Shown one piece after another: positions 11,673-24,452 of a stretch of 64,000 nucleotides of DNA. A program made the translations under genes and the position numbers. Under the pieces are notes generated by a model. It saw only the letters and a list, made by a program, of their open reading frames with translations. It was not told the origin of the DNA and made no database searches. The stretch comes from Solirubrobacterales bacterium (lineage in GTDB: Bacteria > Actinomycetota > Thermoleophilia > Solirubrobacterales > 70-9): NCBI GenBank assembly GCA_035703365.1, contig DASSYI010000007.1, positions 1,696 through 65,695 of the forward strand, given 5' to 3'. How positions within the stretch are numbered: the stretch's first letter is position 1; every line of letters starts with the position of its first letter.

Positions 11673-12479
11673 ATGCCCGCCGCCCCAATGTACGGCCGCC
11701 TGCCCATAGTGAAGATGCTGCTGGTGACGATCGCCCTGACGGTGGTCATCTCGGCGGTGATGGTCCCGATCAACTGGAACGGTCAGGGGGCCTCCACGGC
11801 TGCGCCGAAGATCGACCACCTGCTGAACGTGATGATCGTCCTCTCGGCGTTCGTCTTCTCGCTGGTGATGGTGATGCTCTTCTACGCGCTGTGGAAATTC
11901 AAAGCGAAGCCCGGCGACGAGTCCGACGGCGAGCCGATTCACGGCAACACCCGCCTGGAGATCGCCTGGACCCTGATCCCGACCGTCATCGTCCTCTTCG
12001 CCGGCGGCTACAGCTGGAAGGTCCTGGACGACATCGAAGAGCCGAACTCCAAGCACCTGACGGTCTCGGTCTTCTCCCAGCAGTACGCCTGGAGCTTCGC
12101 CTACCCAGGCAAAGGCTACGCCTACAGCGAAGGCGAGCTGCACGTGCCGGTCGATCGCCAGATTCAGTTCAAAATGCACGCGATGGACGTGATCCACTCC
12201 TTCTGGGTCCCCGAGTGGCGGATCAAGAAAGACAACGTCCCCGGCATCACCACCACCGCGATCGTCACCCCCGACAAGGAAGGGACCTACCAGCTGGTCT
12301 GCACCGAGCTCTGCGGCTTCGGCCACGCGACGATGCGCGCCAAAGTCGTCGTCGAGTCGCCGGCCAAGTTCAACGAATGGGTCGAAGGCCTCAAACAGGA
12401 CCTCCCCGAACCGTTCATGGACGTTCTCAAAGAAGAGAGCGTCTCGAACCCGCCGGCGCTGGACGCCGGAGGGGCATAA
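11673..12479 (+). CDS. ctaC: Cytochrome c oxidase subunit II (CuA-containing)
   Basis: Two N-terminal TM helices and a complete CuA site: DVIHSFWVPEW ... CTELCGFGHATM. Confidence 0.92.
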   Translation: MPAAPMYGRLPIVKMLLVTIALTVVISAVMVPINWNGQGASTAAPKIDHLLNVMIVLSAFVFSLVMVMLFYALWKFKAKPGDESDGEPIHGNTRLEIAWTLIPTVIVLFAGGYSWKVLDDIEEPNSKHLTVSVFSQQYAWSFAYPGKGYAYSEGELHVPVDRQIQFKMHAMDVIHSFWVPEWRIKKDNVPGITTTAIVTPDKEGTYQLVCTELCGFGHATMRAKVVVESPAKFNEWVEGLKQDLPEPFMDVLKEESVSNPPALDAGGA

Positions 12480-12491
12480 TGGAGCCAGCTG

Positions 12492-14399
12492 ATGGTTGAC
12501 GCGATCAAGAGACCCGGCTGGTGGCGTGGCCTGATCGGCGCCATCGCCTTCGGCGCCTTCGGCTTCGGCCTCGTCATCGCCCTGCGGGCGATCTCCGACC
12601 TGCCGCTCTACCAGACCGAACAGACCGGCTACCCGCACGTGATCGTGCCCGCGATCACCGCCCCGCTCGGCTTCCTGCTGGGCTTCGGCTGCTTCGACTA
12701 CTGGCTGCGCTGGGCCGCGGGGCTGCCGACGATTCCGGACGACCACTCCCAGCACGGCGCCAAGAGCTGGAGGGACTACTTCAAATTCAACACCGACCAC
12801 AAGGTGATTGGTGTCCAGTACGTCGTCACGACGTTCTTCTTCTTCTTCCTCGGCGGCCTGATGGCGATGCTGATCCGGGCCGAGCTCGCCCAGCCGGGCA
12901 CCCAGATCGTCGAAGCCTCGACCTACAACAGCCTCTTCTCGACCCATGCGGTGCTGATGATCTTCGTCTTCGTGATTCCGGTCTTTGCCGGGCTCGCGAA
13001 CTACGTCCTGCCGCTGATGATCGGCGCCCCGGACATGGCCTTCCCGCGCCTCAACGCGCTCAGCTTCTGGATGCTGCCGATCGCCGGGGTCCTCTTCATC
13101 GGCAGCTTCCTCGCCCCCGGCGGCGCCTTCGACGCCGGCTGGACGGGGTACGCGCCGCTTTCGACCGGAGCCCCCCTCGGGCAGTCGTTCTTCAACCTCG
13201 GCGTCCAGTTCGCAGGCGCCTCCTCGATCGCGACCGCGCTCAACTTCCTGGTCACGATCATCACCATGCGTGCGCCGGGGATGACCTTCTGGCGGATGCC
13301 GCTGCTGGTCTGGGCGAACCTCTCGACCTCGCTGCTGGTCGTCGCCGCCACCCCGTTCATCGCCGGCGTCCAGTTCATGGTCCTCTTCGACCGCGCCCTG
13401 CACACGAACTTCTTCGACTTCGCGGCCGGCGGCGACGTGATCAGCTACCAGCACATCTTCTGGTTCTACTCCCACCCGGCGGTCTACATCATGATGCTGC
13501 CCGGGTTCGGGATCATCTCCGAGGTCATCTCGACCCATGCCCGCAAGCCGATCTTCGGCTACCGGTTGATGGCCCTGGCGCTGATCGGGATCGTCGTCCT
13601 CAGCTACTCGGTCTGGGCGCACCACATGTTCGTCGCCGGGATGTTCTCTTGGCTGCGGGTGCCGATGATGATCACCACCCTGCTGATCGCGGTGCCGACC
13701 GGGATCAAGATCTTCTCCTGGCTGGGAACGCTCTACTTCGGCAAGATCCACACCTATTCGACGTCGATGCTGTTCGCGCTCGCTTTCATCGTCACCTTCA
13801 CGATCGGCGGGATCTCGGGCGTGATGCTCGGCATGGTGCCGATCGACATCCACGTCTCCGACACCTACTTCATCGTCGCCCACATCCACTTCGTCCTCTT
13901 TGGCGGCTCGGTGTTCACGATCTTCGCCGGCGTCTACCACTGGTTCCCGAAGATGACCGGGCGGATGTACGACGAGAAACTCGGCCGCGTCCACTTCTGG
14001 GGCACCCTGGTGGGCACCTGGGGCACCTTCATCCCGATGCACTGGGTGGGGATGGACGGGATGCCGCGCCGGGTCGCCGACTACGCCGAGCAGTTCGGCA
14101 ACTGGAACCTCTTGATCAGCGCCTTCGCCTTCATGCTCGGCGCGATGCAGCTCGTCTTCCTCTACAACATGGTCGTCAGCTGGCGCTTCGGCCCGAAGGC
14201 CGAGGCCAACCCCTGGCGGGCCAACTCGATCGAGTGGCAGGTCTCTTCGCCGCCGCCGATCTTCAACTTCGACGAGATCCCGCGCGTCGTCGGCGGCCCC
14301 TATGAGTTCGGGATCCCCGGCGCCAAACACGCGATCATGGCCGGCGAAGGGGCAGAGGTGCCCGCCGGTGAGAAAAGCGCGGTGGGCACCGGCTCATGA
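12492..14399 (+). CDS. ctaD: Cytochrome c oxidase subunit I (A-type, YS-motif A2-like)
   Basis: All six ligand histidines are present (STHAVLMIF, WFYSHPAVY, WAHHMF, AHIHFVLFGG), along with TMRAPGM and WFPKMTGR. The 635-aa protein has an N-terminal extension. Confidence 0.95.
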   Translation: MVDAIKRPGWWRGLIGAIAFGAFGFGLVIALRAISDLPLYQTEQTGYPHVIVPAITAPLGFLLGFGCFDYWLRWAAGLPTIPDDHSQHGAKSWRDYFKFNTDHKVIGVQYVVTTFFFFFLGGLMAMLIRAELAQPGTQIVEASTYNSLFSTHAVLMIFVFVIPVFAGLANYVLPLMIGAPDMAFPRLNALSFWMLPIAGVLFIGSFLAPGGAFDAGWTGYAPLSTGAPLGQSFFNLGVQFAGASSIATALNFLVTIITMRAPGMTFWRMPLLVWANLSTSLLVVAATPFIAGVQFMVLFDRALHTNFFDFAAGGDVISYQHIFWFYSHPAVYIMMLPGFGIISEVISTHARKPIFGYRLMALALIGIVVLSYSVWAHHMFVAGMFSWLRVPMMITTLLIAVPTGIKIFSWLGTLYFGKIHTYSTSMLFALAFIVTFTIGGISGVMLGMVPIDIHVSDTYFIVAHIHFVLFGGSVFTIFAGVYHWFPKMTGRMYDEKLGRVHFWGTLVGTWGTFIPMHWVGMDGMPRRVADYAEQFGNWNLLISAFAFMLGAMQLVFLYNMVVSWRFGPKAEANPWRANSIEWQVSSPPPIFNFDEIPRVVGGPYEFGIPGAKHAIMAGEGAEVPAGEKSAVGTGS

Positions 14400-15280
14400 G
14401 CGCCGTGCAGGCTGATGAGCGTAAACCGCTGCTGGTCTTCCTCAACGAGGTTGCCGGCGGCCGCAAGCTGCTGCAGGCGGTGCGTGAGCGTCAGGAGCAG
14501 GTCTCCGGCGTCGTCGTCGCGGCGCCGCAGAACCAGCCCTCGGTCGGGCAGCTGATCGACGCCAGCGAGGTGCGCGAGGCCGCTCGGGCCCGGGTCGAGG
14601 TGACGATGGCCGTGCTGGGCGAGTTCGGGATCGGCTCGGTCGGCGAGGTGATGGACCCCGAGCCTTCGCTGGCTCTCGACGACGCCGTCAGGGCGCACCG
14701 CCCGGGCGAGGTGCTCCTCTCCTGCCTGGCCGACACCCGCTTCGGCTTCTTGCGCCGCGACCTGGTCGAGTGGGCGCGCGAGCGGGTCGAACCCGAGGTG
14801 AAGTTCACCCACATCCCGGTGCGGATCGAGGACGACGCGATCCGCTGGGACCTCAACCACACCCTTGTCGTGGCGACCAAGACCGTCGCCGCCCCGGATC
14901 TGGTGGCGCGGATGAAGGACAGGGCGAGCATTCGACCGCACCGCTTCACGATCATCTGCCCGCGGGCCGAGGACGTGAGCGAGGGCCAGGTCGTCCGCGA
15001 CCTCGCCTCGACCCTGGCGGAGCTCTACCGCTCCGAGATCGACGCCACCGGCCAGCCGATGAGCCCGGATCCCTTCCTTGCGGTCAAGAACGCGATCGAG
15101 CACTATCGGATCGACGACATCCTGATCTCCACCTTTGCCGGCGAGCGTTCGCAGTGGCTCGAGGAGGATCTGATCGGCCGGGTGCGGGAGATAACCGAGA
15201 AGTCCGTCGAGCACATCGAGGTCGGCCGGCCCGCGGCAGCAGTCGCCGCGGCCGTCGCCGAGGGGGAGGCAAGCAGCTGA
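14396..15280 (+). CDS. Soluble tandem-repeat (USP-like/adenine-nucleotide-alpha-hydrolase-like) protein embedded in the cta operon
   Basis: 294-aa ORF with no TM segments and two homologous halves (GEVMDPEPSLALDDAVRAHRPGEVLLS vs GQPMSPDPFLAVKNAIEHYRIDDILIS). It has ATGA overlaps with both ctaD and ctaE. Confidence 0.7.
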   Translation: MSAVQADERKPLLVFLNEVAGGRKLLQAVRERQEQVSGVVVAAPQNQPSVGQLIDASEVREAARARVEVTMAVLGEFGIGSVGEVMDPEPSLALDDAVRAHRPGEVLLSCLADTRFGFLRRDLVEWARERVEPEVKFTHIPVRIEDDAIRWDLNHTLVVATKTVAAPDLVARMKDRASIRPHRFTIICPRAEDVSEGQVVRDLASTLAELYRSEIDATGQPMSPDPFLAVKNAIEHYRIDDILISTFAGERSQWLEEDLIGRVREITEKSVEHIEVGRPAAAVAAAVAEGEASS

Positions 15281-17178: not shown

Positions 17179-18153
17179 TCAGGCGTGCCCGGCGGCGGCC
17201 GCGGCGGGGCGCTCGGCTTCGCGACGCGCGGACGAGGGTTCGCCGCGGGGTTGAAGCCGCCCCGCCGCGGCAACCGCCCACAGCATCGCCAGCCAGTTGC
17301 CGGTGGCGATCCCGACGTGGACCCAGACGATTCCCGCCGGCAGTTCCAGCCACCACTGCACGCCGCCTACGAGGCCCTGGAGGGCGAGGAGGCCGATTAC
17401 CAGGGTCAGGGGCCTAAGGGCGCGCCGGTCGGCGCCAGGGCGGCGCAGGAGGAACCAGACGGCGATCGCCGCCAGGCCGTAGATCGCGGCGATCGCCGCG
17501 TGGCGCTGGACCACCCACTCGAGCGTCCCCGTGCCCTCGAAGTCGAAGCGGTGGACCAGCTGCCCTTCGTGCGCTCCGGCGTGGGGCCCCGAGGCCGTGG
17601 CGACCGTTCCGGCCAGGATCGTCAGTTGCCCCAGCGGGATTAGAGCCCGAACCGCCCAGACGCTCAGGCGGTCGCGCGAGCGGCGCCGCTCCCAGGGTTC
17701 GTAGCGCGAGCACCAGGCGAGCGCGAAGGCTGCGTCGAGCAGCATCATCGAGAGGATGAAGTGGGACATCACCAGGCCCGGCGCCAAGTGGTACTTGACG
17801 ACCAGGGCGCCGAGGATCGCCTGGCCGATCACCCCGAGCGGCAGCAGGGCGCCGAACAGCGCCAGGTGCCAGCGGTAGGGGCGGCGGAAGAAGGCGAGGA
17901 CGCTGGCGGCGATCACGGCGATGCCGACGAACCCGGTCAGCAGCCGGTTCCCGTACTCGATCACCGCGTGGGATTCGATCGGGGGCGTGGTGCCGCCGTA
18001 GCATTTGGGCCAGTCCGGGCAGCCGAGGCCGGAGCCGGTGAGGCGCACCCCAGCGCCGGTGAGGACGATCAGGGAAAGCGCCGCGAGGGCGACCATCGTC
18101 ACCTGGGCATAGCGCTGCGGAGCGATCTCGAAGCGGCTCAAGCGTTCGCGCAT
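17179..18153 (-). CDS. ctaA: Haem A synthase (COX15/CtaA)
   Basis: 324-aa polytopic ORF with the N-terminal GLGCPDWPKCYG motif and conserved His in TM helices. Confidence 0.88.
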   Translation of the reverse strand: MRERLSRFEIAPQRYAQVTMVALAALSLIVLTGAGVRLTGSGLGCPDWPKCYGGTTPPIESHAVIEYGNRLLTGFVGIAVIAASVLAFFRRPYRWHLALFGALLPLGVIGQAILGALVVKYHLAPGLVMSHFILSMMLLDAAFALAWCSRYEPWERRRSRDRLSVWAVRALIPLGQLTILAGTVATASGPHAGAHEGQLVHRFDFEGTGTLEWVVQRHAAIAAIYGLAAIAVWFLLRRPGADRRALRPLTLVIGLLALQGLVGGVQWWLELPAGIVWVHVGIATGNWLAMLWAVAAAGRLQPRGEPSSARREAERPAAAAAGHA

Positions 18154-18194: not shown

Positions 18195-18893
18195 TCAGCC
18201 CTTGGCGCTGCCGCCGGCGGGCGAGTTTTCGATCAAGTACTGGACCAGGTCTTCGAGTTCTTTGGGGCTGAGGAGTTCGCCGAAGTTCGGCGGCATCACG
18301 TTCGGCTGGTAGCCCTTGACGATCTCTGCGTTGGGTTCGACGATCATCTCTTCGATCGAGGCCGCGTCGTCGTCGGGGGCCAGCGATTCGTCCAGGTTGG
18401 GGCCGGTGACGCCGCCGGATTTGGCGGCGGCGAAGGTGTGGCAGTTGCCGCAGCCGTTGCTGGCGTAGACCTGCGCGCCGGGGCCGCCGGGTACCTTGGG
18501 CGGCGCCGCGCCGGGGACGCCGGCCCATTCGCCGACGTAGGCGGCGACGTCGTCGAGGTCCTGGCCGGTGACGATGTCGGCGGGCATCGAGACAGCGGTG
18601 TTGCCGTTGCTGGGTCGCGGGTACTCGACCTGTGCTTTGACGACCCCCTCGATCGTGTCCGAATCGTTGCCTTCTTCACGCGCCGCGGCGAAGGCGTGGT
18701 CGAGGTTCGGGCCGGTCTGGCCGGTGGCTCCGGCCTGCGCCAGCGCGTGGCAGGTGCCGCACTTGACCCGGAAGAGTTCGCGCCCCCGCTGCGGGTCGGC
18801 GTCGGTGGTGCCGCAGCCCGAGGCGACCGCCATGAGGGCGGCAAGGGCCAGGAGGGCGAGCAGCGGGGGGATGAGTTTCGATACGCGGGCCAT
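18195..18893 (-). CDS. Dihaem c-type cytochrome lipoprotein
   Basis: Trimmed to ATG at 18893. It has a lipobox (LMAVASGCG) and two CxxCH motifs (CGTCH, CGNCH), each followed by TGPNLD. Confidence 0.88.
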   Translation of the reverse strand: MARVSKLIPPLLALLALAALMAVASGCGTTDADPQRGRELFRVKCGTCHALAQAGATGQTGPNLDHAFAAAREEGNDSDTIEGVVKAQVEYPRPSNGNTAVSMPADIVTGQDLDDVAAYVGEWAGVPGAAPPKVPGGPGAQVYASNGCGNCHTFAAAKSGGVTGPNLDESLAPDDDAASIEEMIVEPNAEIVKGYQPNVMPPNFGELLSPKELEDLVQYLIENSPAGGSAKG

Positions 18894-19019
18894 GGGGTGT
18901 AACGCGGGGCGGAGTCTATATGTCGGCGATGCCGGGAAGCGTGTCGTCAGGCACGGTCGCCAGGTAGTCTTTGAGGCGATCCGCACTAACTTTGAAATCA
19001 CGGTGACGGGAGGTCGCAG

Positions 19020-19433
19020 ATGCAGGTGAAGGACGGGATGTCGGAGATCACCTTGACCGTGGGCCCGTCCCACACGCTGCGTGAGGCGGCCGAGAAGATG
19101 GTCGAGAAAGGCACCGGCGCGGCGCTCGTGATCGACGCCGAGTTGCCGACGCCGTCGGTGGTCACCGAGCGCGACCTGCTGATCTCGATCGCCCGGGGTC
19201 AGGACCCCGACCGCGAGCACGTCGCCGACCACATGAGCGAGGGGGTCCTCACCGCCGCCCCCGACTGGAGCCTCGAGCGGGCGGCCGCCGAGATGTCCCG
19301 CCGCGGCGTCCGCCACCTCGTCGTCTTCGAAGAGGCGGAGGCGATCGGCGTCCTCTCGATGCGCGACATCGTCCGCTGCTGGACGTCAGACGGGGCAACG
19401 TCAGAAATGCGATTGCCCGACCCGACGGGCTGA
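19020..19433 (+). CDS. CBS-pair domain protein
   Basis: 137-aa ORF with two CBS-like segments (GAALVIDAE...VVTERDLL and RHLVVFEEAEAIGVLSMRDIV). Confidence 0.8.
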   Translation: MQVKDGMSEITLTVGPSHTLREAAEKMVEKGTGAALVIDAELPTPSVVTERDLLISIARGQDPDREHVADHMSEGVLTAAPDWSLERAAAEMSRRGVRHLVVFEEAEAIGVLSMRDIVRCWTSDGATSEMRLPDPTG

Positions 19434-19510
19434 GACCAAGCAGATCAAGGACGCAGGGAGCGTGGCGTGCTCTGCACGCGAGCGACCGAGGACGCCGATA
19501 TGCGCCGGTA

Positions 19511-19804
19511 TCAGCCCGTCGGCGGGGCGGAGATGGTTTCCACGGGGAGAGCGGCCCCCCGAGTCTCCTGGCGGCGCGGCAGGCGGTAGTAGTCGCGGAC
19601 CGAGCCGCGGACGATGCTGCGGAAGGCGGCGAGGGCGAAGATCAGGCCGAGCAGGCCCCAGATCTTCGGGGCGAAGATGAAGCCGGCCGCGTAGGTGCCG
19701 CAGATCAGCCCCAGGGCGCCGATGGCGAAGAAGATCGGGGCCCAGGAGGGACGCGGCAAGTAGATCGTCTCGCCCGGCTCGGGAACCTGTCGATGATCGG
19801 TCAC
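19511..19804 (-). CDS. Small membrane protein resembling the C-terminal half of actinobacterial oxidase subunit IV (CtaF-like)
   Basis: 97-aa ORF with 2 TM. LPRPSWAPIFFAIGALGL...RDYY resembles the FSPHSWWPI...EYY region that I recall from mycobacterial CtaF. Confidence 0.6.
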   Translation of the reverse strand: MTDHRQVPEPGETIYLPRPSWAPIFFAIGALGLICGTYAAGFIFAPKIWGLLGLIFALAAFRSIVRGSVRDYYRLPRRQETRGAALPVETISAPPTG

Positions 19805-19813
19805 GTCGAGCTC

Positions 19814-19927
19814 CTACTGGGCGATGTAGAGGAAGGCGGCGACGAAGCTGAGGGCGAAAATGCCGGCGGCGATGCCGCCTGCAACCAGCCCCGCTTTCAT
19901 CTGCCTGCGTGCGGTCTCGCGATCCAT
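19814..19927 (-). CDS. Untracked 37-aa single-TM mini-ORF
   Basis: My translation is MDRETARRQMKAGLVAGGIAAGIFALSFVAAFLYIAQ. It ends 9 nt upstream of the CtaF-like start. No strong Shine-Dalgarno sequence is visible. Confidence 0.3.
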   Translation of the reverse strand: MDRETARRQMKAGLVAGGIAAGIFALSFVAAFLYIAQ

Positions 19928-19985
19928 GAAGTGGGATTTCTATCAGGGATGGGGGCGCTAAGGAGGGTCCTGCGCCAAGCGTTGA

Positions 19986-20089
19986 GGAGGGTCGGGTACC
20001 CCTCTGCCAAAGACCGTCGCGCAGCTGGGCGAATTTGAGGGCGCCGCCGTGATTTCTTGAGCCTTTGTCAGAGGGGTACCCGACCCTCC
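19986..20089. repeat. Perfect 21-bp inverted repeat with a 62-nt spacer
   Basis: GGAGGGTCGGGTACCCCTCTG (19986-20006) has its exact reverse complement CAGAGGGGTACCCGACCCTCC at 20069-20089. It lies between ctaB and the mini-ORFs. Confidence 0.9.
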
Positions 20090-20125
20090 ATCCGGGCCGC
20101 GCTGAGGCTTCGGGGGTGGCTCTGG

Positions 20126-21040
20126 CTAGACGTTGGCTGCGATGGCCATCGAGAGGAAGAGCAGCGCTAGGTAGGCGAGGGAGAAGAGGTAGGTCCGCAG
20201 GGCCCAGCGGCGGTCTTTGGTGCGGAGGAGGCGGGCTGCGTAGTAGATGAAGCCGGCTCCGAGGAGGACCGAGGGGATCAGGTAGGCGACTCCGAGGCCG
20301 CCGGCGCAGAAGGGGAGCTGGGTTACGGCGTAGAGGAGGACCGTGTAGAGGAGGATCTGGCGGCGGGTCTCGTCCTCGCCGCGGACGACCGGCAGCATCG
20401 GGATCCCGGCCTTGGCGTACTCGTCCTTCATCAGCAGCGAGAGAGCCCAGAAGTGGGGCGGGGTCCAGAAGAAGATGATCGCGAACATGTAGAAGGCCAT
20501 GCCGCTGAGCTCGCCCGTGACGGCGGCCCAGGCGACCAGTGGCGGCACGGCGCCGGCCGCGCCGCCGATGACGATGTTCTGCGGCGTGCGGCGCTTCAGC
20601 CAGAGGGTGTAGACCCCGACGTAGCCGACGAAGCCGCTGAGCGAGAGCGTTGCCGCCAGGGGGTTGACGGTCAGCGAGAGCAACAGGAACGAGGAGGCGG
20701 CCAGAAGGAGGCCGAAGATCGTTGCCGCCTGCGGGGAGATGCGGCCGGCGGCGACCGGGCGGGTGGCGGTGCGCGCCATCGTCCGGTCGATGTCGCGGTC
20801 GACGGCGTGGTTGATCGCGCCGGCGCCGCCGGCGGAGAGGGCGCCGCCGAGGCAGGTGAGGAGGATCAGGCCGAGCGAGGGGTCGCCCGCCACGTACATC
20901 GTCGTCACCGTCGTGAATAGCAGCAGCGACTGCACCTTCGGCTTGGTCAGCGTCAGGTAGTCGCGGACGACGGTGGGGAGGACCGAGCGGGTGGCCGCCG
21001 TCGGATTGGGCGCGGTCTGCGCGCCGGCACCGGATTGCAT
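20126..21040 (-). CDS. ctaB: Protohaem IX farnesyltransferase (haem O synthase)
   Basis: 304-aa UbiA-family ORF with NHAVDRDIDRTMARTATRP. Confidence 0.9.
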   Translation of the reverse strand: MQSGAGAQTAPNPTAATRSVLPTVVRDYLTLTKPKVQSLLLFTTVTTMYVAGDPSLGLILLTCLGGALSAGGAGAINHAVDRDIDRTMARTATRPVAAGRISPQAATIFGLLLAASSFLLLSLTVNPLAATLSLSGFVGYVGVYTLWLKRRTPQNIVIGGAAGAVPPLVAWAAVTGELSGMAFYMFAIIFFWTPPHFWALSLLMKDEYAKAGIPMLPVVRGEDETRRQILLYTVLLYAVTQLPFCAGGLGVAYLIPSVLLGAGFIYYAARLLRTKDRRWALRTYLFSLAYLALLFLSMAIAANV

Positions 21041-21045
21041 GGCGC

Positions 21046-22731
21046 TCAGGCTACCGGCTGCGATTCGCGCGACGCCGCCCGCTCGGAGCGACGGGTGCGA
21101 TGGCCGATCGCCTCACGGATGTCGCGCAGCGGGCGGGCGCTGCGGACGTCGGGGAGGACGTCGAAGTTGTGCGGCTCCGGCGGCGAGAGGGTGAACCACT
21201 CCAGCGTGTCGCCGCCCCACGGGTCATGGCCGGCCTCGGGGCCGTTCTCGCGGCTGGCGATGGCGTTGACGATCGTCAGCAGGATCCCGATGGAGAGGAC
21301 GAAGACGCCGATCGAGGCGATCACGTTGTAGGCGGTGACGCCGGTGCCGGCGAAGTACTTGTAGGCGTCGATCACCTGACCCTGCTCGGTGCCGGCGAAG
21401 AACAGCGGCACGAAACCGAGCAGCAGGCCGGTCATGATCGTCCAGAAGGAGATTCGGGCGAGGGTCTCGCCCATCGTCCGTCCGGTCATCTTCGGGAACC
21501 AGAAGTGGAGCGCGGCGAAGCCGCCGAAGACCGAGCCGCCGATCAGGGTGAAGTGGGTGGCCGCAGTCGAGTCGACCGTGTTCTTCAGGTGCCAGGCGGA
21601 GGCGACCAGCGAGTGGCAGAGCTCGGAGGCGAGGCCGACCGTGATCGCGAAGATCGCCCCGGTTGCGAAGAGCAGCGGCGCCCGCATGTGCAGGGTGCCG
21701 CCGGCCAGGGTCGCGATCAGGTTGAAGAGGACGAGCCCGAAGGGGACGATCAGCGCCAGCGACATCAGCATCGCGAAGTACATCCAGCCGATGCCGATCG
21801 GCGCGGTCAGCATGTTCTGCATCCAGGCCATGGTCCCGATCACCGCGATCGCGGCCAGCGCGGCCATCACCACGGTGCGGTTGAAGAGCGGTTTGCGCGA
21901 GAAGGCAGAGGCGATTTCGGCGATCGCGCCGAAGGCGAAGATCAGGATCAGCATGTAGGCGCCGGTGTAGAAGATCCAGCTCAGGTGCTGCCAGAGGAGC
22001 GGCGCGCCGCCGGAGCCGTCGGCGAAGAAGATCCCGTCGTAGTGGCGGTCGATCATCAGCATCGTCAGCGCCGCCAGCAGAACCGGGCCGATCACGACCA
22101 TCAGCCAGGAGCCGACCGCGGCGGCCCAGGCGAAGACCGGCACCCGGCGCCAGGCCATTCCCGGCGCCCGCATCGTTTTCAGCGTCGCGATCAGGTTGAT
22201 CGCGAGGAAGACGAAGCCGAGGGTCGCGAGCCCCGACGAGGTCACCCAGGCGTCGACGCCGTTGTTGGAGAGGAAGGCCTTCTCGCTGAGCGGCGCCAGC
22301 GGGTTGACGCCGGCCTCAGACGGGGTGAAGAGGAAGGTCGCGTAGAGGGCCACGCCGCCGGTCACCCAGAGCGCCAGCCCGGTCTGCCCGAGGCGCGGCA
22401 GCGCCGTCCCGCGGGCGCCGATCTGCAGCGGCGTCACGTAGTAGAAGAGCCCCATCGTCAGCGGCAGCGCGAAGAGGAAGATCGCGCTGGCGCCGTAGAG
22501 CGAGAGCATCCGGTTGAAGGCGACGGGGGAGAGGAAGGTGTTCTCCGGCACCAGCAGCTGGATCCGCATCAGCACCAGCTCGACGAGGGCGAGGAAGAGG
22601 AAGCCGAGGGCGCCGCAGATCAGGATCTGCCCGATCTCCTTGTGGTCGGCGCTGGTCGCGAGCTGCGCCCAGCGCGGGCGCTTGGGGCTGTAGCCGCCGG
22701 CGACGAGCTCGGGGCGCGGGCTGGGGCTCAT
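21046..22731 (-). CDS. Haem-copper oxidase subunit I-like protein lacking 5 of 6 canonical His ligands
   Basis: 561-aa, 12-TM ORF with clear COX1 anchors (SADHKEIG, TMRAPGM, WFPKMTGR). The ligand columns read Y, T, QN and A. See findings. Confidence 0.9.
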   Translation of the reverse strand: MSPSPRPELVAGGYSPKRPRWAQLATSADHKEIGQILICGALGFLFLALVELVLMRIQLLVPENTFLSPVAFNRMLSLYGASAIFLFALPLTMGLFYYVTPLQIGARGTALPRLGQTGLALWVTGGVALYATFLFTPSEAGVNPLAPLSEKAFLSNNGVDAWVTSSGLATLGFVFLAINLIATLKTMRAPGMAWRRVPVFAWAAAVGSWLMVVIGPVLLAALTMLMIDRHYDGIFFADGSGGAPLLWQHLSWIFYTGAYMLILIFAFGAIAEIASAFSRKPLFNRTVVMAALAAIAVIGTMAWMQNMLTAPIGIGWMYFAMLMSLALIVPFGLVLFNLIATLAGGTLHMRAPLLFATGAIFAITVGLASELCHSLVASAWHLKNTVDSTAATHFTLIGGSVFGGFAALHFWFPKMTGRTMGETLARISFWTIMTGLLLGFVPLFFAGTEQGQVIDAYKYFAGTGVTAYNVIASIGVFVLSIGILLTIVNAIASRENGPEAGHDPWGGDTLEWFTLSPPEPHNFDVLPDVRSARPLRDIREAIGHRTRRSERAASRESQPVA

Positions 22732-23426
22732 GGGGTTTCTCCGTTTTCGATCTGGCCGACGACCTTTTCCTGTGCGGCCTCGATCTCTTCAGCCTGCGTT
22801 TCGACGAACTCTTCGTATTCCTCTGGCGAGACGACCTCGACTTCGGTCCGCATCGCCGCGTAGGCCTGGCCGGAAAGGGTGGCGGAGTCGCCCAGGTAGG
22901 CGCCTTCCTCGTCGGCGCTGAAGAGCACCTTGTTGGTCTTGCCCGGCACCGCGTCGGCCTTACGCGCCAGTTCTTCCACATTCCAAGTGTGGACGACGTC
23001 GGTCGACTGCAGCTCGAGCTCCACAGCGGTGTCGACCGGGACCACCAGCTTGTAGTAGGAGAAGGCGCCGTTCGGGTAGTCGTAGCGCCACAGCCACTGC
23101 TGGCCGGTCGCTTCGATCTTCAGCGGTTCCGATTTGTCCGAGGCAAGGCCCGCCTCGCCGGTCGTCGGCTTTTCCCGGGCGTTGTCGGTGAAGACAATCC
23201 CGAGGATGAAGAGCAGCGCCGCAAAGACGGTGAGGACGCCCCCGACCCGGAACTGCAGGCGCCGGCCGCCGAGCAACTGGCGCGGCTCGGCCCCCCGCTC
23301 GCCGCGGTAGCGGCGGACGACATAGAGGAGCGCGCCGACGATCGCGACGATCAGGATCGCCGCGGCGAAGAAGCCGATCCAAAACAGCGTGTCGATCTGG
23401 TCCGTGCCAGGGGAGTGGGACGCCAA
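22728..23426 (-). CDS. Oxidase subunit II-like protein without CuA ligands
   Basis: 232-aa ORF with 2 TM plus a cupredoxin-like domain (GQQWLWRYDY, DVVHTWNV). The CuA CxExCGxxHxxM stretch reads SATLSGQAYAAM. It has an ATGA overlap with the subunit I-like gene. Confidence 0.85.
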   Translation of the reverse strand: MASHSPGTDQIDTLFWIGFFAAAILIVAIVGALLYVVRRYRGERGAEPRQLLGGRRLQFRVGGVLTVFAALLFILGIVFTDNAREKPTTGEAGLASDKSEPLKIEATGQQWLWRYDYPNGAFSYYKLVVPVDTAVELELQSTDVVHTWNVEELARKADAVPGKTNKVLFSADEEGAYLGDSATLSGQAYAAMRTEVEVVSPEEYEEFVETQAEEIEAAQEKVVGQIENGETP

Positions 23427-23507
23427 AGCGCGGCCATTCTATTCACGCTGGGCGGCGCGACGCCCTCCCGGCCGGCTTCTGGCCCCGGACCTATACTCGC
23501 CGCCGCT

Positions 23508-24452
23508 ATGCGGAAGCGCTCCCGGCCATCGAATGCGCTCCATCTGGCGGTGCGGGCCGGCGCCCTCGGCGCGGTCGGCGCGGCCGTGGCGGTCCCCCTG
23601 CTCCGGCGCCGGTTGCGAATCCCGACCGCCGCCACCGTGACCGCCGTCGCGGCCGGCCCGTTGGCGCTGGCCGTGTTGAGTCCGCGCTCGAAGCGGCGCG
23701 ACGTCGTCCTCTTCGCGCTGCAGATGTGGGCCTTCACCGTCGCCCACGAGCTCCCTTATGACGACCCCGAGCGGCTGAAATCACGGCTTCGCACCCTCTA
23801 TCCGATCCACAGCGACCGGATCATCGGCGCAGGTCAGCTGCCCAACGTCCGCCTGCAGCGCGGTTTGGCCCGTCTGCCGCAGGTCGGGGCGCTGAACAAA
23901 TTCCTCGCCTGGACCCACTGGCTCTGGTTCATCGTGCCCTACGCTTCGCTGAGCTGGATCCTCGTCCGGCACAACGAGCGCTTCCCGCGCTCGGCGCGCC
24001 AGATGGCCGCCGTCTTCGACCTTGGCTGCGTCCTCTACTTCGCGGTCCCGACGGCGCCGCCGTGGTGGTCCTCCGAGCAGGGCCTGACCGGAGAAGAGGT
24101 GCGGCGGATCATGGTCGAGGTCGGCGAACCGACTTGGGGCCGGGCCTGGGAGCGGATGTACGACGCCCTCGGCGGCAACCCGTGGGCGGCGATGCCCTCG
24201 CTGCACTTCGCCACCTCGCTGCAGGCGGCGCTTTCGCTCTCGGAAGCGGGGAAGGTGGAGGGCGCGCTCGGCTGGGGGTACGCGGGCACGCTCGGCTTCG
24301 CCCTCGTCTACCTCGGTGAGCACTACGTCACCGACCTGATCGCCGGCGCGGTCCTGGTGGCGGCCGTGCGCAAGGGCGAGCCGCTCGCCGAACCCCTTAT
24401 ACGCAGGGTAAATGGAGGGCTACAGAGACTGGAGAGAATCGCGAGCGGGTAA
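23508..24452 (+). CDS. PAP2-superfamily membrane phosphatase/phosphotransferase
   Basis: Trimmed to ATG at 23508. This polytopic protein carries the PAP2 motifs MPSLHFATS and GEHYVTD. Confidence 0.7.
   Translation: MRKRSRPSNALHLAVRAGALGAVGAAVAVPLLRRRLRIPTAATVTAVAAGPLALAVLSPRSKRRDVVLFALQMWAFTVAHELPYDDPERLKSRLRTLYPIHSDRIIGAGQLPNVRLQRGLARLPQVGALNKFLAWTHWLWFIVPYASLSWILVRHNERFPRSARQMAAVFDLGCVLYFAVPTAPPWWSSEQGLTGEEVRRIMVEVGEPTWGRAWERMYDALGGNPWAAMPSLHFATSLQAALSLSEAGKVEGALGWGYAGTLGFALVYLGEHYVTDLIAGAVLVAAVRKGEPLAEPLIRRVNGGLQRLERIASG

Follow-up and report, generated by a model that had tools for sequence, protein, structure and literature searches.

The 64,000-nucleotide stretch analysed here (the window), from a Solirubrobacterales bacterium (GenBank assembly GCA_035703365.1, contig DASSYI010000007.1, positions 1,696 to 65,695 of the forward strand), carries a gene for a cytochrome c oxidase subunit II-like protein (II-like) that overlaps a gene for a subunit I-like protein (I-like). 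The II-like protein is probably the cupredoxin subunit of a cofactor-less pseudo-oxidase, a former terminal oxidase whose two core subunits would persist as a non-redox membrane scaffold. Both proteins retain the oxidase fold, their ligand positions have been replaced in a way that is shared across a bacterial family, and both genes evolve under purifying selection. With redox sites missing from both subunits, the pair would be unable to respire, and we regard it as very probably non-redox. Our literature search found no published description of a cofactor-less haem-copper oxidase. Sequences with this loss are referred to below as ligand-depleted.

Ligand positions of the two subunits

The II-like protein is recognisable as an oxidase subunit II by both sequence and predicted structure. 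It matches Pfam COX2 (PF00116) with an E-value of 2.8e-18 and, over its full length, the CoxB model TIGR02866 with an E-value of 1.3e-41, where its 142.4 bits narrowly miss the cut-off of 147.7; against NF050117 it reaches 95 bits, under the cut-off of 250. An AlphaFold model, built with 29 relatives in the alignment, has a mean predicted local distance difference test score (pLDDT) of 77.8 and comprises helices at residues 8–42 and 55–85, a beta-sandwich and a C-terminal helix. The top Foldseek matches of this model are oxidase subunit II chains, and it superimposes on the soluble CoxB domain 4w9z with a root-mean-square deviation of 1.8 Å. Two N-terminal transmembrane helices and a C-terminal cupredoxin domain, the features that define the subunit II fold, are thus both present. 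The translation contains GQQWLWRYDY, DVVHTWNV and AVPGKTN (positions 22980–23003 of the minus strand encode TDVVHTWN), in agreement with an earlier note on this DNA, made from the sequence alone, which had described a recognisable cupredoxin scaffold with two transmembrane helices.

The CuA centre of a canonical subunit II is held by a histidine, a cysteine, a glutamate carbonyl, a second cysteine, a second histidine and a methionine. In the II-like protein these positions read H146, S181, T183, S185, Y189 and M192. Aligned with the canonical ctaC of the window (CTELCGFGHATM), both cysteines have become serine (S181 and S185), the glutamate between them threonine and the second histidine tyrosine, so that only the first histidine and the methionine are retained. 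An independent HMMER alignment to subunit II of the Thermus caa3 oxidase (2yev_B) gives the same columns. The substitution of Ser/Ser/Tyr for the CuA Cys/Cys/His, as put forward in the earlier note, therefore stands for the window protein; as a description of the clade it is too narrow, since relatives carry either Ser or Ala at the first cysteine and either Tyr or Phe at the histidine, and the pattern across 75 species is H-[S/A]-x-S-[Y/F]-M. We also looked for another set of Cys and His residues that might bind copper. The window protein has no cysteine at all, 19 of the 21 family members are Cys-free, and H146 is the sole histidine conserved as such, which leaves no alternative copper site available. 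The former CuA loop is a low-confidence region of the AlphaFold model.

Loss of CuA from a subunit II with a membrane-anchored cupredoxin domain is familiar from the quinol oxidases, in E. coli CyoA and B. subtilis QoxA. CyoA (SASYSGPGFSGM) carries Ser, Ser, Phe and Met at the corresponding positions, so replacement by Ser/Ser/aromatic is a known way for a cupredoxin to survive without CuA. The likeness has limits. In CyoA the first histidine, invariant in the II-like clade, has been lost as well (it is Asn), and the partner of CyoA, CyoB, is fully liganded, binds quinol and is followed by cyoC and cyoD.

The partner of the II-like protein is an unmistakable subunit I by fold, matching Pfam COX1 (E = 1.8e-80) and giving a model with a predicted template modelling score (pTM) of 0.86 and Foldseek template modelling scores of 0.85–0.9 to CtaD and CyoB chains. 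Its ligand columns were read against the canonical ctaD of the window. Five of the six histidine ligands are replaced, the exception being the haem a ligand on helix X: the helix II haem a ligand is Tyr, the first CuB ligand is Thr, the adjacent second and third CuB ligands are Gln-Asn, and the haem a3 ligand is Ala. Met stands in place of the cross-linked tyrosine. In the D-channel (R. sphaeroides numbering here and for the K-channel), D132, N121 and N139 correspond to Gly, Tyr and Gly, the D132 equivalent falling within the segment IGAPDMAFPR, and the position of E286, or of the YS motif, is Ala; in the K-channel, K362 is Val and T359 is Phe. The Mg-site Asp has become Asn, and the haem-propionate Arg-Arg pair Ile-Asp. 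Neither of the two residue sets that mark the A family of haem-copper oxidases, the six histidines with the cross-linked tyrosine and the D- and K-channel residues, is therefore found in the I-like protein, and the ligand-column alignments bear out the earlier statement that the partner, too, lacks its redox ligands.

Distribution and origin of the pair

Of 121 sampled genomes of the order, 120 yielded a relative of the II-like protein, either its orthologue or a canonical subunit II. Within the family to which the window belongs, the pair is present with its ligands replaced in all 20 other genomes examined, which span the 13 other sampled genera. The II-like and I-like genes, whose co-occurrence the earlier note had proposed as a check, stand together in every one of these, always in the order II–I–(ctaA)–ctaB. 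Scanning of GTDB species genomes brought in 80 more loci, 76 of which encode a ligand-depleted I-like protein; both subunits are depleted wherever subunit II could be read cleanly, and the other four loci are intact and are labelled Solirubrobacteraceae. The scan thereby extends the depleted pair to 75 species-level Solirubrobacterales metagenome-assembled genomes (MAGs). Soil metagenomes contain many close homologues of both proteins, and where a source is named it is always a Solirubrobacterales MAG.

The replacements follow a pattern in which some positions are nearly fixed and others vary. Among 79 subunit I sequences from the scan, the CuB site has Gln in 73 and Asn in 74, and four, the intact controls, keep His-His. 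Canonical residues are confined to those four controls, apart from the helix X histidine, kept in 56 of the 79, and a single additional His at the CuB2 and Arg482 positions. Across ligand-depleted subunit I sequences, the Gln-Asn of the CuB site and the Asp that stands for the second Arg hardly vary, the helix II position may be Y, F, A, G, H or S, the haem a3 position A, D, S or T, and the helix X position H or about ten other residues. Residues at the D- and K-channel positions are similar throughout the clade to those of the window protein. The earlier prediction that both subunits are redox-dead by canonical criteria accordingly describes a conserved state, and is due neither to alignment error nor to local mutation.

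Sister families suggest what the ancestor of the pair was like. The gene that best matches II-like has the same neighbourhood in four other families of the order, with a divergent PAP2-like gene upstream and the order II, I, (ctaA), ctaB. There, subunit II has an intact CuA site, CxExCGxxHxxM, and subunit I (loci L017–L034) is an intact A1-type protein with GHPEVY, HH, HxH, K and RR. The II-like protein is 30–40% identical to these intact subunit II proteins (111–177 bits), compared with 27% (84 bits) for the ctaC of its own genome. In a reduced tree, the ligand-depleted clades and the intact second oxidases of the order fall together, opposite the canonical A2-type proteins and outside representatives, with support of 100; no root was inferred. 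A 76-row tree that included long-branch, ligand-poor representatives placed the depleted clades near the midpoint with support of 71, a weak placement that probably arises from long-branch effects. As an intact A1-type CuA oxidase occupies the same position in sister families, the pair is best read as a degenerated orthologue of an A1-type, CuA-bearing oxidase, with the qualification that the unrooted tree shows the two on a shared side, not one nested within the other.

Comparison with A1-type aa3 CtaC/CtaD, represented by M. smegmatis (6adq), C. glutamicum (7q21) and the intact sister-family oxidase, illustrates how much has been kept and how much lost. The two-subunit order, the folds and the motifs GQQWxWRY, PLQIGA, RAPGM, WFPKxTG and SPPxHNF are held in common, and the intact sister-family II–I oxidase has the same genomic position upstream of ctaB. 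In contrast to the A1-type enzymes, the pair has Ser/Ser/Tyr for the CuA Cys/Cys/His, lacks five of six subunit I histidines (the sixth being lost in many relatives), has replaced the cross-link Tyr, the D- and K-channel residues, the Mg-site Asp and the Arg pair, and scores under the NCBIfam cut-offs. On this evidence the ancestral second terminal oxidase, encoded as II–I–(ctaA)–ctaB, would have been an A1-type CuA cytochrome c oxidase of the kind that is still intact in the sister Solirubrobacterales families. In the lineage of the window, subunit II would then have lost CuA, and subunit I both haems, CuB, the His-Tyr cofactor, the Mg site, both proton channels and the haem-propionate arginines.

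A second pair, decayed in a different way, occurs at the same position in a fifth family (f5, genus g18, seven genomes; L035:2018-4809 on the minus strand, and L139–L144). At the CuA positions, subunit II of g18 has S..S..Y..M or G..N..Y..M, and the first His is also missing from some copies; of the subunit I ligands, the first CuB His alone survives, along with the Tyr in most. In the tree the g18 pair groups with the clade of the window, and a single early loss of CuA, common to both, is plausible.

Among the best 150 representatives at 50% identity there are further clusters of ligand-poor subunit I proteins outside the clade of the window (P0263/P0295/P0313, P0274/P0294, P0247/P0269 and others). 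Cofactor-poor homologues of subunit I may, judging from these sequences, have arisen several times.

Selection and possible functions

The ratio of nonsynonymous to synonymous substitution rates (dN/dS) was estimated by the Nei–Gojobori method (NG86) for the three closest genome pairs, with dS between 0.26 and 0.61. Values were 0.12–0.15 for II-like and 0.13–0.16 for I-like, in the range of 0.04–0.29 obtained for neighbouring genes and similar to those of the intact sister-family orthologues, for which the two closest pairs gave 0.11–0.16 (subunit I) and 0.14–0.38 (subunit II). This similarity indicates that neither gene is a decaying pseudogene. The pair combines homology, residue loss, purifying selection and persistence in about 95 species genomes, which together mark it as a putative pseudoenzyme.

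To locate the remaining constraint, mean pairwise identity was compared between 21 ligand-depleted and 19 intact subunit I sequences. The ratio of depleted to intact was 0.95–1.06 for the N-terminus, periplasmic loops 1-2, 5-6 and 11-12, cytoplasmic loop 4-5 and the C-terminal tail, and 0.56–0.64 for loop 6-7 together with helix XI and the catalytic helices VI and VIII, the three helices by themselves giving 0.59–0.64. In A-type oxidases, the periplasmic loops of subunit I face the cupredoxin domain of subunit II. Taken with the ATGA overlap of the two genes, which is predicted to couple their translation, the constraint on the loops supports survival of a I–II heterodimer whose surfaces would matter more than its core. 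We infer that the two proteins very probably still pair in the membrane without transferring electrons, and that they may form a scaffold for protein–protein contacts. What such a scaffold would serve is a more tentative matter: it might be a platform for the co-encoded haem O and haem A synthases, or for assembly of the single active aa3-type oxidase, the likeliest specific role but one less probable than not. Linkage to ctaB predates the loss of cofactors, and so argues only weakly for a part in haem O/A supply.

Several observations weigh against a cofactor-less scaffold. The ctaB link is ancestral, being found beside the intact oxidases of sister families too, and does not by itself indicate a role in haem synthesis. 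All carriers are uncultured MAGs, with none cultured among the named matches. The helix II Tyr (Y79) and helix X His (H393) occur together in 57 of 95 ligand-depleted subunit I sequences, and the substitutions conserved at the CuB site (Gln-Asn), the second Arg position (Asp), H146 and M192 could mark a new binding site. SURF1 (PF02104) discriminates neither way: no match turned up in any of the 121 sampled genomes of the order, although a control Corynebacterium genome has one.

The conserved residues lend themselves to a reading in which the former metal sites of the pair have taken on ligand binding or transport, with a non-haem Thr/Gln/Asn/Asp site or a single haem between Tyr79 and His393 in subunit I, and a His146/Met192/Tyr189 metal site in subunit II. 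Near-invariance of Gln-Asn, of the Asp at the Arg482 position, of H146 and of M192 is what such a function would leave behind, and the helix X His is found only alongside the helix II Tyr, in none of the 31 sequences without it, a co-variation test that is underpowered because it rests on only three independent pairs. Other features point away from a new site. The alternation of Ser with Ala at the first cysteine, and of Tyr with Phe at the histidine, looks like packing rather than chemistry; Tyr79 and His393 are missing in many members that nonetheless retain the genes; neither the haem-propionate arginines nor either proton channel is left; and the model has low confidence at the former CuA loop. 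We consider this reading unlikely.

There is likewise only a small chance that the pair has a structural role within a respiratory supercomplex, occupying the old place of the second oxidase beside the bc-type complex or the aa3 enzyme; this and the new binding site are the principal rivals of the scaffold reading. Its best matches in structure and sequence are the CtaD and CtaC of actinobacterial III2-IV2 supercomplexes, the surface loops and C-terminal tail are constrained while the core is relaxed, and the cluster includes a gene for a dihaem cytochrome c, all of which would suit such a role. The search for a partner specific to genomes with the ligand-depleted pair found none, however, and a 97-residue open reading frame (ORF) of the cluster is weakly present beside intact oxidases too. 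The proposal also overlaps with the idea of a non-redox scaffold for protein contacts, which we favour.

Less probable again is a variant in which a residual site, made up of His146/Met192/Tyr189 in II-like and Thr/Gln/Asn/Asp with Tyr79/His393 in I-like, could transiently hold haem O/A or a metal ion, the pair acting as a chaperone that hands haem or copper from CtaB/CtaA to the aa3 oxidase, in an order whose sampled genomes gave no SURF1 match.

We think it very unlikely that the two genes are functionless relics, kept as an operon leader between a promoter and the essential ctaB/ctaA. The invariant position directly upstream of ctaB, rates of change about 1.5–3.5 times those of ctaB for both proteins in most pairs, and free drift at the former ligand positions would fit, as would the odd ORF lengths at a few MAG loci, which could be frameshifts or assembly errors. 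Set against them are dN/dS values of 0.12–0.16, as low as those of neighbouring genes; full-length frames that stay open in about 95 species, down to about 46% identity; many invariant motifs in the loops and C-terminus; conservation of the ATGA coupling; and the tendency of bacteria to delete useless membrane-protein genes, here 2.4 kb of them.

Finally, the sequences effectively refute the notion that the II-like protein serves, without CuA, as subunit II of an active CyoAB/QoxAB-type quinol oxidase, in which quinol electrons enter subunit I and CuA is dispensable: the CuA loss with Ser/Ser/aromatic/Met as in CyoA and weak matches to TIGR01433 (CyoA, 60 bits, cut-off 266) and TIGR01432 (QoxA, 52 bits, cut-off 241) are offset by a partner subunit I without haem or CuB ligands, by replacement of the CyoB quinol residues R71/D75/H98/Q101 with L/E/A/R, by I-like scores far under the cut-offs for QoxB and CyoB (311 bits against 1020 for the latter), by the lack of adjoining subunit III or IV genes, ctaB following directly, and by nearest intact relatives that bear CuA. 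The CuA-less subunit II is thus the one quinol-oxidase feature found, the liganded subunit I and the family-level scores being absent. A grouping of the pair inside a quinol-oxidase clade, which the earlier note had named as grounds for doubting its alignment of subunit I, is not seen; low model scores, missing quinol residues and A1-type, CuA-bearing nearest relatives all place it outside.

A cofactor-less oxidase core retained as a scaffold would have a counterpart in an unrelated family. NuoD and NuoB of complex I derive from [NiFe] hydrogenase subunits, have lost their metal ligands and are retained as structural components of a membrane complex, with the quinone site of complex I as the new role; like the pair, they are a redox module kept without its metal ligands.

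Within the haem-copper superfamily itself, the closest known departures are gNOR and other variant families with altered active sites; in gNOR the cupredoxin subunit lacks the CuA residues as well (Murali et al., PNAS 2024, PMC11214002). This family was called the first family to replace even one active-site histidine, the His residues being completely conserved in other haem-copper families (PMC11214002). Yet gNOR and the other variant families keep their haems (PMC11214002), whereas the pair is without essentially every ligand.

Few membrane enzymes have been studied as thoroughly as the haem-copper oxidases, whose metal ligands are treated as invariant, and the pair breaks this rule: in a soil lineage that is abundant, selection appears to have maintained the full two-subunit core for a long time although it has no cofactor. 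This would mean that the oxidase scaffold has a use beyond redox chemistry, and the pair may offer a natural 'apo' form for the study of oxidase folding and assembly. There is a practical consequence as well. Existing annotation names these genes 'cytochrome c oxidase subunit 1/2' or 'cbb3-type cytochrome c oxidase subunit I', so that metagenomic counts of terminal oxidases, and inferences of aerobic capacity drawn from them, would be one enzyme per genome too high in Solirubrobacterales.

Locus and neighbouring genes

Table 1 Positions of the pair, its diagnostic sites and neighbouring genes in the window
Feature	Position	Strand	Remarks
Subunit II-like gene	22728..23426	minus	232 aa, TTG start; two transmembrane helices, CuA-less cupredoxin domain, C-terminal helix
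H146 codon, retained first CuA histidine (DVVHTWN)	22989..22991	minus	invariant in the ligand-depleted clade
Former CuA loop, S181–M192, SATLSGQAYAAM	22851..22886	minus	Cys to Ser, Glu to Thr, Cys to Ser, His to Tyr; Met kept
ATGA overlap, II-like stop / I-like start (CCATGAGC)	22728..22731	minus	read from the sequence
Subunit I-like gene	21046..22731	minus	561 aa; 12-helix transmembrane oxidase fold without haem, CuB and proton-channel residues
WMQNML, helix VII; Gln-Asn at former CuB His-His (WAHHMF in ctaD)	21808..21825	minus	from translation and alignment
ctaB (haem O synthase)	20126..21040	minus	NF003349, 359 bits, above cut-off
97-aa two-helix membrane ORF downstream of ctaB	19511..19804	minus	conserved position in family; no family match
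Dihaem c-type cytochrome, lipoprotein-like N-terminus	18195..18902	minus	Pfam Cytochrom_C, two stretches; start codon uncertain; position conserved
ctaA (haem A synthase, COX15/CtaA family)	17179..18153	minus	Pfam PF02628, E = 1.3e-24; synteny
Comparator canonical A2-type ctaC (11673-12479) and ctaD (12492-14399)	11673..14399	plus	all ligands present

The gene order around the pair is highly conserved (Table 1): trxB, a lysylPG-synthase-like gene and PAP2 point one way, followed in the opposite orientation by II, I, (ctaA), ctaB and the 97-residue ORF, then by a CBS gene oriented like the first three, and by the dihaem cytochrome c and ctaA oriented like the pair. In the window, ctaB starts 5 nt past the I-like stop codon on the same strand. 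In about 48 of 76 genomes, I and ctaB are separated by no more than about 20 nt, and a ctaA paralogue intervenes in most of the others. This extra ctaA-like gene was noted at L043, L046–L049, L051 and L053–L056, and in about 16 of 76 species loci; the window has none there, its ctaA lying further downstream. A scan of positions 19400–23800 for promoters and terminators found no promoter-like sites, and terminator-like matches at the level of shuffled sequence.

The 97-residue ORF is present in 27 of 28 family genomes and has weak matches near the oxidase genes of other families. As a partner specific to genomes with the ligand-depleted pair it was ruled out, being weakly present in families with an intact oxidase.

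No subunit III gene adjoins the pair, as had been noted earlier, and the single COX3 match of the genome is the canonical ctaE. The lack is ancestral, since none adjoins the intact oxidases at the same position in sister families either. COX1 and COX2 are each present at exactly two loci in the genome, which further holds a single COX3 and a single cytochrome bd oxidase, whose subunit I lies outside the window (G000:C73:11730-12992). Since a bd oxidase is present and the second COX pair is ligand-depleted, the oxygen reductases of the genome would be one A2-type haem-copper oxidase and bd.

The canonical ctaD of the window is of the A2 type, with YSHPAVY and without the D-channel Glu. Between ctaD and ctaE lies a 294-residue ORF (14396-15280, plus strand) that lacks hydrophobic helices and is found at this position throughout the order, at 27–65% identity.

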